A stretch of 62,673 bases of DNA, counting the filler, from Globobulimina sp. (taxonomy: Eukaryota): assembly GCA_003354225.1 (NCBI GenBank). It is 32 parts of 32 records of this genome, joined end to end, with 100 filler letters (N's around TTAATTAATTAA, not from the genome) between each part and the next. Parts side by side here need not be neighbours in the genome. Positions count along the whole stretch, not along the records: positions 52,971 to 54,831 come from PIVH01011140.1; 31 more parts are not named here. The stretch is one strand, 5' to 3'. Made by a program: the position numbers and the translations under genes. This document shows positions 51,494 to 55,925 of this stretch, in pieces. The stretch's first letter is position 1, and each line of letters starts with the position of its first letter. The notes below the pieces were generated by a model. That model worked only from the letters and a program-made list of their open reading frames with translations, was not told the DNA's origin and did no database searches.

Positions 51494-52870
51494 TCAATCA
51501 TCGGCCTGTTTGTTTAACAATGCATCGTATTTCTTTGCCCGTAATTTGCAGTCCGGATGTAACGACCACCACTGATTTGGATGTGTTCTCTTCGTATGTC
51601 CATTCAACGAGGATTTACTGGCAAATTTCTTGAGACACAATGGACAATCAAATGGTTTCTCGCCAGCTTAATATATCAAAGTTAATTATTTAATATTCGT
51701 CTTATTCACAGTAACAAATAGCAAGAAACTTAACTGTGTAATCTGCGATGAACCACCATGTTATGTTTCACTTTAAATGTCTTGCCACAGAATTCACACT
51801 CGTATGGCTTCTCCCCTGTATGTATTCGCACGTGGTCCTTTAGACTGTGTATATACAGACACATATACATACAAACACAAATAGCTTTGATAGGTTAAGC
51901 ATATATATACATCAATACCTATGTGATTGCTTGAACGACTTACTGCAGAAAGCACAAATATATGGCCTCTCACCAGTATGAACCCGTAAATGTTGCGTCA
52001 AATTAGATTTCCGTGCGAATTTTTTACCGCAATGCGGACAGCAAAGAGCTTGATCCGTATGAATGATGAAATGTATTTTCAAATTGGATTTGTGCTTAAA
52101 TGATTTGCCGCAATCACTACATTGATACTCAGGCTTGCCATTATTAATAGTATTTATTGTATTTATTGTGGAGGACGAACAATTTGAGTCAATATCAATG
52201 TCGCTGTTACCGCTGGCACTCGAACTGGCACTCGCACTCGAATTGATATTCATATTCATATTATTCATTATCATCTCTTCACGCTTCGTAATGATAATTT
52301 GTCCCGGATTGTGCGGATTGAATGATATGGTCCGATGAGTGCTGAGATTGTGACTGCTGTCTGCTTTGATTTTCAATTCTTTGCAAGTGCGACTAGTATC
52401 AAACATATTTGGTGAGGTGTAATTGGATGAGATTAAGGGTGATATCTTAAATAATGGCGAGGTTATGGACGTATTATCAATGGATGGCAATAAGGGGAGC
52501 TTTAAGGTGGAATTGATGTTGTTGTGGATGGAGGTTATTGTGGATGGTATTTGTAAGTGTAAAGGTATGGGAGGCGGTAATAAAGGCAATGTAGTTTGTT
52601 GTGTTGCTTGTGTTGCTGTGGAATTAGTATTGGTGTTGGTATTAATATCGGTGTTATAAAAAGCTATATTGGATGGTAATGGCAGTGGCAATGGTAATGG
52701 TGATGGCGTATTTATGTTATAATATGGTGTGTTGTGTGTATTTGTGGTGGATATTGGCACTAAAAACGAGTATTGACTGTTTTGAGGGACAATTGCAACT
52801 GTTTTGTTATTGTTAAGATCAGCATTTCCACGATAGTATAATACGGCTGGTGAGTCTGGAGCATGTTTTA
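51494..52870 (-). CDS. Kruppel-type C2H2 transcription factor, five fingers (introns 51845-51918 and 51667-51734; 5' truncated)
   Basis: HTGERPY, HTGEKPY and HTGEKPF linkers after splicing; low-complexity N-terminus. Confidence 0.93.
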
Positions 52871-52970
52871 NNNNNNNNNNNNNNNNNNNNNNNNNNNNNN
52901 NNNNNNNNNNNNNNTTAATTAATTAANNNNNNNNNNNNNNNNNNNNNNNNNNNNNNNNNNNNNNNNNNNN

Positions 52971-54604
52971 GAGACATTATTAAAATTCACAGTTCGTAAT
53001 AAATCTGTGGTTATTAAAACTCTCGTACTTCCACAATGGAATTCGTTCATTATTAATTCCCTCTCTTTTTGTTGCATATTGCCGTGCATTGCACTAACAG
53101 TATAATCACGGTCTTTCATTTTATCAGCTAACCACATTACTTTCCTTCTGGTATTACAAAAAATAATAGCTTGAGTTATTGTCAATGAGTCATACAAATC
53201 GTATAATGATTCTAATTTATAATCTTCTTTCTCCACTGCTACATAATATTGTTGTATACCATCCAATGTTAATTCTTCTTTTTTAACTGCAATATGTACC
53301 GGATTACACATGAATCTTTCCCTTAATTGTAGTATCTCGTTGGGCATAATCTCAGTAAATAATGCTACTTGAATATGAGAAGGCAAACACTGAAAACAAT
53401 CATAAATTTGTTCCTTTAATGTCCTCCCCAGCATATCATGGACATTATCTAAAACAAATATTTTTAAAGATTTCATGGAAAACACTGCTTCAACTGACTC
53501 CTCACATTGTTCACACTTCTCCTTGGATTGTTGGTGTCTAATTATATTTGTGCAATGATAAACGAAACGACCAGGTCTATTAAGCATATCACTGACTCGT
53601 CCTGGAGTACCAACGACGACCTGAACACCATTGACTAACTGCTGGATCTCATCACGAATAGATGTGCCACCGACACATGCTCGAGTTACTACGTTTAAAT
53701 AAGTACCTAATGATTTCATGAGCTGTTTATTATATATTAGGTTGTGTGACTGTGACACGATATATTGTGTTTATTATTCACTTACTTTATGGATTTGTTG
53801 AGCTAATTCTCGCGTAGCTGCTATAACTAATACTTGACATTGAGCGTCATTTAAATCTATTCTTTGTAATGCTGCGATGGAGTATGTTGCAGTTTTACCA
53901 GTTCCAGATTGAGATTGAACTACAACATCATGTTCTATATTTATTTTATTTTATTGTTATAAGTGAGAGGTTTATTTTGTATGATCGATGATTTAACTTT
54001 GAATAATCTGACATATACCACGTTGTTGAATAGCTGTTGGTTTTTCAAATCCGCAAGCATAAATACCGCGTAATAAATCGTGTCTCAATTGCATATCATC
54101 AAAAGACTCATATACTTTAATACCATTATCAAAATAATCCTGTTTTTGATCATAGTCATTCATCATCAGATTGTGTTGTTTATCATTAAAAACGAGTCCA
54201 TTAAATTGGCACACTGGTAGTTCATGAATGGCTGTTTGTGAATATTGCTGTTGATCAACAACTTTGTTGCAACCCGTTTCAAATTGATTATTACGATTCG
54301 TATCATTGGTATTATATTCATCTTCAGCATCATCATCATTTTCACTGTCCTTAGTATCGTCAATTTGATTTAGTGATGTTGTTTTTGTGCTGATATGAAT
54401 GTTCAAGTTACCTGGCAAAAATGATGAAATTGCAATAATATCGCCATCATCATCTCTGAAACACTCAATATCGTGAATTTTTGTGATTTGTTTGATATTA
54501 CTAATGATATCATCTGTTGGAGTTCCTTGATATATTTTTACTTTCCATTTGTTATTGCCATGGTGTATGTTTAATGTCGTTTTGGTATGTTTTGGCTGTG
54601 CCAT
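52971..54604 (-). CDS. PB1-like domain fused to a divergent eIF4A-like DEAD-box protein (introns 53935-53997 and 53723-53785; 3' truncated)
   Basis: [60 protein letters not shown] and [12 protein letters not shown] are eIF4A-like; motif II reads DNVH and motif III reads TEI. Confidence 0.88.
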
Positions 54605-54663
54605 TGATTGGAGTTTATATAATATACATATATCCTCAAAAACCAAAGAAAAACTATAAAAAT

Positions 54664-54831
54664 ATGGAAGAGTATGTCCGCAGGGCTAAGTTATTAATAT
54701 TGCTGCAAAATATGGGTTTTGATGAAACATATATTCAACGAGCTTGCACAATATATGAGAAAACATACGGAGTCAACTATGAAAGCAATACAAAAGTAAT
54801 GCGTGGCATTATTGCGAAATTACAAAATAAA
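54664..54831 (+). CDS. UBA-like N-terminal fragment
   Basis: [15 protein letters not shown] (MGF motif); runs off the contig. Confidence 0.55.
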
Positions 54832-54932
54832 NNNNNNNNNNNNNNNNNNNNNNNNNNNNNNNNNNNNNNNNNNNNTTAATTAATTAANNNNNNNNNNNNN
54901 NNNNNNNNNNNNNNNNNNNNNNNNNNNNNNNA

Positions 54933-55925
54933 GTGGTTTGTACAGGTGGCAATTCTGGCATTGGATTATCAATTTGTTCTGCATTCGCATCTATATCACA
55001 CATTCAATATGGCAAAATTAAGAAAAACAAACTTAATAAACAACAATGTCATATTATAATGGCATCACGGAACGCAACCAAATCTAAACAAGAAATCTCA
55101 AACATTTTGAAGCAATATCCGTTTGCCAAAATTATGTATATTTCTTTGGATTTATCCAAATTGGACTCCATCATACAATTTGTAAACACTTTAAAATATA
55201 AAATTGATGAAACCATTCGGAGAAACATCCGGATATTAATAAATAACGCTGCTGTTTCATTGCTAAAACAACCTCAATCAACAACATTTTATAAAAATAA
55301 CAAGAAAGAATATGAATTAGCATTCTCTGTAAATTATTTAGGACATTTTGTACTAACTCAGTTGATTTATGACCATATATTTATTCCCAATTATAATAAA
55401 AACGGAGATTATCGGATTGTGAATGTCTCATCTTCGGCTCATGTGTTTTGCGATAGTTACTCAGTGAATGATGTATTGGATTTTGAACGAATTGAAAATT
55501 ATCATAAAAATAAAAAATACGACTATTGGATGAGTTATTCGCTCAGTAAAATGTGCCAGGTGTTACATTGTAAAATGGTGCATAAAGAATATAATAAAAA
55601 TAATGTATTATTTAATTCATGTCATCCCGGTTCGACTATTGATACAACGATGGTCGGTCAACATATTAATCCCAATAATTTTATTATATCATCAACGATG
55701 AAATTAATATGGTTCGCGCTAAAAACTAATGATAAATGTGCTGCAACACCTGTTTTATTAGCAGTTGATCCAAAAATTAGGGAAAACCAAATCAGTGCAA
55801 AGTATTTTAGAGACTGTGGGCAAATCCATTCAAGCAAACATTCCAATGATAAAAACCTAATGGAGAGATTGAAAAAATATAGTTTTACTATTTATGACAA
55901 CATTGCATTAAAATCAAAACTATGA
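54933..55925 (+). CDS. Short-chain dehydrogenase/reductase (retinol dehydrogenase/WWOX-like), C-terminal SKL
   Basis: TGGNSGIG, LINNAA, VNYLGHFVLT, RIVNVSS, YSLSK, HPG; ends in -SKL, a PTS1 peroxisomal signal. Confidence 0.93.
   Translation: MVCTGGNSGIGLSICSAFASISHIQYGKIKKNKLNKQQCHIIMASRNATKSKQEISNILKQYPFAKIMYISLDLSKLDSIIQFVNTLKYKIDETIRRNIRILINNAAVSLLKQPQSTTFYKNNKKEYELAFSVNYLGHFVLTQLIYDHIFIPNYNKNGDYRIVNVSSSAHVFCDSYSVNDVLDFERIENYHKNKKYDYWMSYSLSKMCQVLHCKMVHKEYNKNNVLFNSCHPGSTIDTTMVGQHINPNNFIISSTMKLIWFALKTNDKCAATPVLLAVDPKIRENQISAKYFRDCGQIHSSKHSNDKNLMERLKKYSFTIYDNIALKSKL

Follow-up and report, generated by a model that had tools for sequence, protein, structure and literature searches.

A foraminiferan eIF4A paralogue with altered catalytic motifs and an N-terminal β-grasp domain: a candidate pseudo-helicase from Globobulimina sp.

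We examined a gene on the minus strand of contig PIVH01011140.1, from the Globobulimina sp. assembly GCA_003354225.1, within a window of 62,673 nucleotides (nt; the whole stretch of DNA that was analysed). The gene encodes an eIF4A-type helicase core in which motif II reads DNVH, preceded by an N-terminal domain predicted to adopt a β-grasp fold. We consider it, with slightly better than even confidence, to be an expressed foraminiferan eIF4A paralogue turned pseudo-helicase, serving as a non-catalytic adaptor or competitor. Few eukaryotic proteins are as strongly conserved as eIF4A, whose catalytic motifs are textbook invariants; this gene would be a natural counterpart of the laboratory dominant-negative mutants, about 74% identical to a working enzyme but without its ATPase and coupling motifs and with a protein-interaction fold added. 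Molecular genetics hardly exists for foraminifera, and the gene would offer an entry to their control of translation.

Helicase core and its altered motifs

The product carries both domains of the DEAD-box family: Pfam DEAD (PF00270) was matched by exon 2 with 52 bits and by exon 3 with 46.7 bits (cut-off 26), and Helicase_C (PF00271) by exon 3 with 52.8 bits (cut-off 23.5). The Q motif and motif I agree with the family, and motifs II, III and V depart from it. The closest proteins among the 120 matches listed were eIF4As (67% raw identity, 74% over aligned columns). Identity to the eIF4A of Bolivina, Elphidium and Nonionella was 74–75%, and the named closest relatives were the foraminifera Bolivina argentea, Elphidium margaritaceum, Nonionella stella and Bulimina marginata. 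The best solved relative was human eIF4A-I (expect value, E, 1.5e-71), with eIF4A-III behind it at about 3e-68. A maximum-likelihood tree of 30 rows places the gene within the clade of foraminiferan eIF4As (support 98/95); the end branch of the gene measures 0.49 against a median of 0.075 (6.5-fold), the canonical foraminiferan rows having 0 to 0.03. As far as sequence can tell, the gene is a lineage-specific paralogue of foraminiferan eIF4A, and the clade support and the human match uphold a preliminary description of this DNA, which had called it an eIF4A paralogue. Three other paralogues in the foraminifer clade (P0043, P0045 and P0089) have long branches (0.16, 0.23 and 0.36, respectively) and single motif changes, namely a degenerate motif V in P0043, GAT for SAT in P0045 and STT for SAT in P0089; all keep DEAD. 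From such sequences, divergent eIF4A duplicates seem common in the clade.

Motif states were counted in 91 full-length eIF4A relatives, and compare with the gene as follows.

54026–54052, minus strand: Q motif GFEKPTAIQ, intact, with S to T at one position
53891–53908, minus strand: motif I SGTGKT (P-loop), intact
53801–53818, minus strand: motif Ia ATRELA, its proline lost (PTRELA in 91/91 relatives)
53438–53449, minus strand: motif II DNVH, replacing DEAD
53417–53449, minus strand: motif II with the post-II stretch, altered, post-II reading GRTL (DEADEMLSRGF in 91/91 relatives)
53348–53356, minus strand: motif III TEI, replacing SAT (89/91 relatives)
52982–53002, minus strand: motif V LL-RTVNF, replacing LLARGIDV, with one residue missing and G, I and D replaced

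The preliminary description had reported an intact Q motif and P-loop together with altered DEAD, SAT, PTRELA and LLARGID motifs. Each of these lies where it had been described, on the minus strand, and set against the 91 relatives the changes are not ordinary variation. The 13-residue block LDEADEMLSRGFK, invariant in 91/91 relatives, has seven of its 13 residues changed in this gene. The motif II glutamate, here replaced by asparagine, is kept in 120/120 relatives among the matches listed; the one of these without the string DEAD has DEGD, in which the glutamate remains. The last aspartate of motif II is lost too, giving way to histidine. In motif V nearly all relatives have ARGID or SRGID where the gene has -RTVN. 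The GG and TPGR (GTPGR) motifs are kept. Counted together, the columns of motifs II/post-II, III and V were kept in 7/21 cases vs 223/288 elsewhere (Fisher 5e-5, a value flattered by the choice of the motif windows after seeing the data). Both X2 sequence variants (records 10 and 11; the public runs are described below) keep DNVH. According to PMC12063893, eIF4A with a glutamate-to-glutamine exchange in motif II has neither ATPase nor helicase activity and behaves as a dominant negative, and eIF4G binds eIF4A mostly via its C-terminal domain.

Gene structure, transcripts and the N-terminal domain

Contigs of four public runs were compared with the gene contig, part of which is present in six listed runs; X2 and X3 are runs from different studies. 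The gene is laid out in three exons.

53998–54604, minus strand: exon 1, amino acids (aa) 1–202 plus 1 nt, from translation, with its end defined by X2 and X3 contigs that show the joint 53934/53998
53935–53997, minus strand: intron 1, 63 nt, GT..AG, phase 1, skipped exactly in X2 and X3 contigs
53786–53934, minus strand: exon 2, with motif I intact and motif Ia reading ATRELA
53723–53785, minus strand: intron 2, 63 nt, GT..AG, phase 0, skipped exactly in X2 and X3 contigs
52971–53722, minus strand: exon 3, holding the remainder of RecA1 and the greater part of RecA2, truncated at the contig end (translation, Pfam)
54386–54583, minus strand: predicted β-grasp (ubiquitin-fold) domain, aa 8–73 (phmmer family, AlphaFold2 model, fold searches)
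54290–54385, minus strand: acidic low-complexity linker, aa 74–105, from translation, with no partner columns in the eIF4A alignment
54113–54256, minus strand: in-frame insert of about 48 aa, from alignment to the foraminiferan consensus
53489–53575, minus strand: in-frame insert of 29 aa, aa 302–330, between motif Ib and motif II, absent from 13/13 aligned relatives

From the first ATG at 54604 the gene runs for 502 codons without a stop and is cut off at the contig end (52971), at least 502 residues being encoded. Exon 1 holds the start codon, the β-grasp domain, the acidic linker, the eIF4A N-terminal peptide, the 48-aa insert and the Q motif; the N-terminus of the product aligns with P0124 from residue 1, and the start codon region is covered by X3 record 20 and X1 record 8. 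The two canonical introns read from the contig in the preliminary description proved correct, both being removed exactly in X2 and X3 contigs, where the skipped parts run CT..AC on the plus strand, equivalent to GT..AG on the gene strand; X1 record 5 retains intron 2 (the genomic form). X2 record 12 (954 nt) covers 53423–53722, 53786–53934 and 53998–54502 in one piece. It spans FRDDDGD (54440–54460, minus strand, within the N-terminal domain) to DNVH, and therefore a cDNA-type molecule joins the N-terminal domain to the helicase core; the N-terminal fusion proposed earlier is thus real, one spliced contig spanning 53423–54502. The gene is apparently transcribed, an RNA origin being inferred from the exact intron removal in the cDNA-like X2 and X3 contigs.

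Both inserts are contiguous in the spliced X2 record 12, and are therefore coding and not introns. The larger one separates a 10-residue peptide (54257–54286) from YESFDDM, where canonical eIF4A has FETNWDKVVESFD contiguous. The 87-nt insert at 53489–53575 was considered as an unspliced intron, which was ruled out because it is contiguous where both real introns are removed. Its 29 residues had no confident structure in AlphaFold2 (predicted local distance difference test, pLDDT, about 32); they hold an H-C...H...C-x2-C arrangement which, speculating from these letters, could bind metal. The AlphaFold2 model of the exon 3 fragment (alignment A1) had a mean pLDDT of 52.5 and was too poor for use. 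At the other end of the gene, the terminal 30 bases of the contig, in the motif V region, have 0–1 differing letters in contigs of X1, X2 and X3 (records 1, 9 and 14; two samples, two studies), and X2 record 9 and X3 record 14 continue past the contig end by 447 and 771 nt, respectively. The final 20 or so nt (GTGAAT...) were considered as the start of an intron; this was not supported, since the X1, X2 and X3 contigs pass through without a joint or loose end, though a retained intron is still conceivable there.

Further versions of the sequence were seen in the runs. A second version of the region 53342–53422 (minus strand, aa 353–379) is present at about half depth in X1, X2 and X3. It differs at 7 of 81 nt (6 changes nonsynonymous, 1 synonymous), with little difference outside this region, keeps DNVH and looks like a second allele, a paralogue or a conversion tract. 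An X3 contig has a loose end at 53420 that, read by eye, encodes the canonical D-E-M-L-S-R-G vs H-D-M-L-G-R-T; run X3 therefore also contains an eIF4A copy closer to the canonical form, whose adjoining bases are at least 90% identical. The X6 contig (records 21–23) is a third copy, 90–99% similar, in which the I377 codon of motif III is different too; the loose end of this contig is in frame only if a 6-nt gap is assumed, and its post-II sequence is uncertain.

The N-terminal domain was searched with residues 1–105 against 1.84 billion representatives using phmmer, which gave 19 matches at E ≤ 1e-3. Thirteen of these align over the domain of about 65 residues and share G-T-P, D-I and L-S-S-x-L-P-N-G (alignment A2); the other six (P0125, P0127, P0129, P0135, P0136 and P0139) were left out as repeat-protein noise, having multi-stretch matches and Ig-like-repeat, RCC1 or miscellaneous Pfam domains. 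The members with species names come from Bolivina argentea and Nonionella stella, and from these sequences the domain appears to define an unannotated family, absent from Pfam and so far seen only in foraminifera among members with names. Its fusion partners are varied: by Pfam the C-terminal parts of the members are C1q, F5/8 type C, ubiquitin/Rad60-SLD, Tudor-knot and PWWP. No helicase domain was found by Pfam in the 13 members, and therefore the eIF4A fusion is unique to this gene within what was searchable. In several family members (P0132, P0138, P0141 and P0142) the β-grasp domain lies between a basic N-terminal stretch and a SUMO/SMT3-like domain at the C-terminus that ends in G-S; the sequences of the SUMO-like members, some with Tudor-knot or PWWP, suggest a nuclear or chromatin role.

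With alignment A2 the domain models as a β-grasp module (AlphaFold2, pLDDT 83, predicted template modelling score 0.66). The order is ββαββ..β, with strands at 8–15 and 18–25, a helix at 30–41, a strand at 46–50, a short bridge at 56–57 and a strand at 67–73, and both this topology and the structural matches to ubiquitin-like domains agree with a ubiquitin-like β-grasp. Foldseek with the domain model gave nothing at E ≤ 1e-3; the highest-ranking rows (E 8e-3 to 5e-2) are a mixture of PB1, SUMO, ubiquitin-like and CIDE-N domains, and ubiquitin-like, SUMO and doublecortin domains score as well as PB1 in the fold search. A profile search of the PDB with A2 found no match to the N-terminal domain, and its only hits were SUMO/SMT3, via the C-terminal parts of the members (profile positions 82–187), with E down to 4e-7.

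The preliminary description had called the domain PB1-like because of its acidic motif, and this was upheld only in part. PB1 domains of type A carry an acidic motif in the hairpin between strands 3 and 4. The DDDGD cluster of the gene product sits in the corresponding hairpin; in relatives it is replaced by, for example, KRKDG or DINNN and is not conserved. The first half of an OPCA-type motif is present, and the acidic residues expected to follow it (from the consensus) are absent. Pfam gave no PB1 match at E ≤ 1 with the whole of exon 1. With an 80-residue piece PB1 (PF00564) was the sole match, at 13 bits (E 0.1), below the cut-off of 23.6, and a sub-threshold PB1 match occurred in only 2/14 family members (best 17.1 bits). 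The domain is possibly a distant relative of PB1.

Constraint, competing explanations and contig context

Within the core, 230/309 aligned columns agree with the consensus of the 30 closest eIF4As. Columns conserved to at least 98% (91 eIF4As, outside motifs II/post-II, III and V) were kept in 109/121 cases vs 114/167 for variable columns (Fisher 8e-6), and RecA2 is better preserved (83/99, or 84%, identical to the canonical consensus) than RecA1 (143/200, 72%). Unconstrained substitutions were simulated on the coding sequence of the core, using the AT bias found in the non-coding parts of the contig. At an amino-acid divergence of 26% there was a mean of 7.5 stops and the frame remained open in 0/2000 runs; at 10% divergence it remained open in 79/2000. 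The sole coding indel among the copies is 6 nt long and in frame. Judged from these comparisons, most of the divergence looks to have accrued under selection for an intact fold with the catalytic motifs released, present-day constraint looking weak (few sites), and the gene looks like a pseudo-enzyme rather than plain decay.

Several points weigh against this reading. Motif VI, the C-terminus and the stop codon fall beyond the contig end at 52971, and the library type of the runs with spliced contigs is not on record. No orthologue of the fusion was found in other organisms by protein and metagenome searches, and long-term conservation of the derived state cannot be shown: a word-based search with the first 150 aa, aimed at longer proteins, gave 139 candidates, none at E ≤ 0.1; a metagenome scan with P0001 gave 6 loci from 195 pattern matches, none with the N-terminal domain (all 6 cover only residues 133–203, the Q-motif region of ordinary eIF4As); and the ESM Atlas gave no usable match. 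The ratio of nonsynonymous to synonymous change (ω), for which a value near 1 had been named in the preliminary description as the sign of a decaying copy, was taken for close copies. The gene differs from the near-identical X1–X3 contigs by 13 nonsynonymous and 6 synonymous changes (ω about 0.54, indistinguishable from neutral; p 0.16), and from the 90–95% similar X6 copy by 8 and 2 (ω about 1). These counts omit the differences at 53254 and 53255, which come from a very high-depth X3 contig with a partial match, probably another paralogue. They point against strong constraint. The very long branch and the two inserts are also as expected of a relaxed duplicate.

Such values among close copies would suit a young duplicate that is becoming a pseudogene, still transcribed and spliced, under relaxed selection after the loss of catalysis and with no function of its own. 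That five helicase motifs or stretches are altered in addition to the inserts, that the orthologous fusion was not found elsewhere, and that several slightly differing copies occur within the same runs would suit it too. We regard this explanation as rather unlikely, and yet as the most serious of the rivals. Against it stand the 502 open codons, given the simulated frames, and the sparing of universally conserved positions outside the catalytic motifs; in addition, the splice sites of both introns still work and the coding indel is in frame.

A different function is conceivable, in which the protein is an ATP-dependent, hydrolysis-dead clamp that stays bound to RNA, and the β-grasp domain recruits effectors to the clamped RNA. 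In the exon junction complex a locked eIF4A-III stays clamped on RNA, in the manner of E-to-Q DEAD-box mutants. The intact Q motif, P-loop, GG and TPGR would permit this, and loss of the motif II glutamate is the classical trap of the ATP state (a general statement in PMC12063893). However, the elements that contribute to the closed state (motifs III and V and the post-II stretch) are degenerate as well, the proline of motif Ia is lost, and motif VI lies beyond the contig end, and we consider a clamp improbable. We give very little credence to the idea that the protein remains active as an ATPase or helicase, its unorthodox motif II (DNVH) being similar to a DExH-type box. It does keep the P-loop, the Q motif and the first of the motif II aspartates, and the H in the fourth position of DNVH is reminiscent of the DExH boxes, but the glutamate that was exchanged for asparagine is the catalytic base, and SAT and motif V are lost as well.

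A pseudo-helicase acting as an adaptor or competitor remains the explanation that we prefer. With the two-RecA scaffold, Q motif and P-loop kept, the protein may still bind nucleotide; lacking the motif II glutamate and the coupling motifs, it would neither hydrolyze ATP nor couple hydrolysis to RNA release. Docking of eIF4A partners, such as MIF4G- or MA3-type proteins, may still be possible on the better-kept RecA2, and the β-grasp module could link the protein to a further partner or let it self-associate. Overall it would behave as a non-catalytic adaptor or competitor within the eIF4A interaction network, acting through binding: it might compete for eIF4A partners, form a bridge to the ligand of the β-grasp module or, less likely because of the extra motif losses, clamp RNA. 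A bolder version, which we think unlikely, would make it a natural dominant-negative-type eIF4A of foraminifera that binds ATP, is dead in hydrolysis, docks eIF4G- or PDCD4-type partners via RecA2, and is switched or localised by a PB1-related β-grasp module that associates with itself or binds a partner. It would then serve as a built-in brake on cap-dependent initiation or would relocalise it, perhaps during dormancy or within the reticulopodial network, the module being a new foraminiferan adaptor family that also wires SUMO-like, Tudor-knot, PWWP, C1q and discoidin domains. The case consists of one truncated gene in one fragmentary assembly, with no orthologue found, and as a reading of sequence is a lead rather than a result.

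The window is made up of about 32 contigs of 1860–1863 bp, apparently ordered by length and joined by artificial linkers N44+TTAATTAATTAA+N44 (e.g., the N blocks 52871–52970 and 54832–54931). It is a concatenation of contigs, and therefore the gene's neighbours in the window are not its genomic neighbours. No further copy of the helicase gene was found in the window by tblastn. The gene contig and the open reading frame (ORF) that diverges from the helicase gene are placed as follows.

52971–54831: contig carrying the gene, 1861 bp, with N/TTAATTAATTAA linkers on both sides (N-block map, sequence)
54664–54831, plus strand: start of the divergent neighbouring ORF, 56 codons to the contig end

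The ATG of the divergent ORF lies 59 nt from that of the helicase gene. Its first 56 residues had no Pfam match; judged by eye they resemble a small helical UBA-type module. X2 record 13 (depth 44.8) covers 54771–54831 of this ORF and continues past the contig end. Two other contigs of the window, both unrelated to the helicase gene, carry an open frame with C2H2 zinc-finger repeats (51912–52922, minus strand) and a short-chain dehydrogenase-like open frame (54888–55925, plus strand).

Comparison with known systems

A literature search, with supplementary files outside its scope, found no description of the fusion or of the domain family, and in the literature on pseudohelicases nothing was found on eIF4A. 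The nearest known proteins are the canonical foraminiferan eIF4As (P0020, P0030 and P0033; Bolivina argentea, Elphidium margaritaceum and Nonionella stella), with which the gene shares the two RecA domains, the Q motif, P-loop, GG and TPGR, and the clade. It differs from them in DNVH, TEI, GRTL, ATRELA, the degenerate motif V and the inserts of 29 and about 48 aa, and it adds an N-terminal extension of about 105 aa with the putative β-grasp domain. P0043 belongs to the same clade and likewise has a longer branch (0.16) and a degenerate motif V; it differs in keeping DEAD, SAT and PTRELA and in being without the N-terminal domain.

The engineered DQAD mutants of eIF4A resemble the gene in the loss of the catalytic glutamate with the P-loop kept, and are inactive (PMC12063893); the present gene, in contrast, is natural, has several more motif losses and an added domain, and is known here as sequence. 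Utp25/Def is described, in PMC9539457, as a validated DEAD-box pseudohelicase. According to the same source it, too, keeps the DEAD-box fold with catalytic motifs lost or not needed, and has an N-terminal accessory region. Utp25 is an ancient, conserved ribosome-assembly factor that is distantly helicase-like, whereas the gene appears as a recent offshoot of eIF4A, about 74% identical. PB1 domains (PF00564; NBR1, p40phox/p67phox) resemble the N-terminal domain in its modelled β-grasp fold and its acidic hairpin (D-D-D-G-D) between strands 3 and 4, whereas the model of the gene's domain is without the second helix and its family is marked by G-T-P and L-S-S-x-L-P-N-G. Paralogues of eIF4A, DEAD-box pseudohelicases and β-grasp adaptor domains are kinds already known; what appears to be new here is the fusion of eIF4A with a β-grasp domain.

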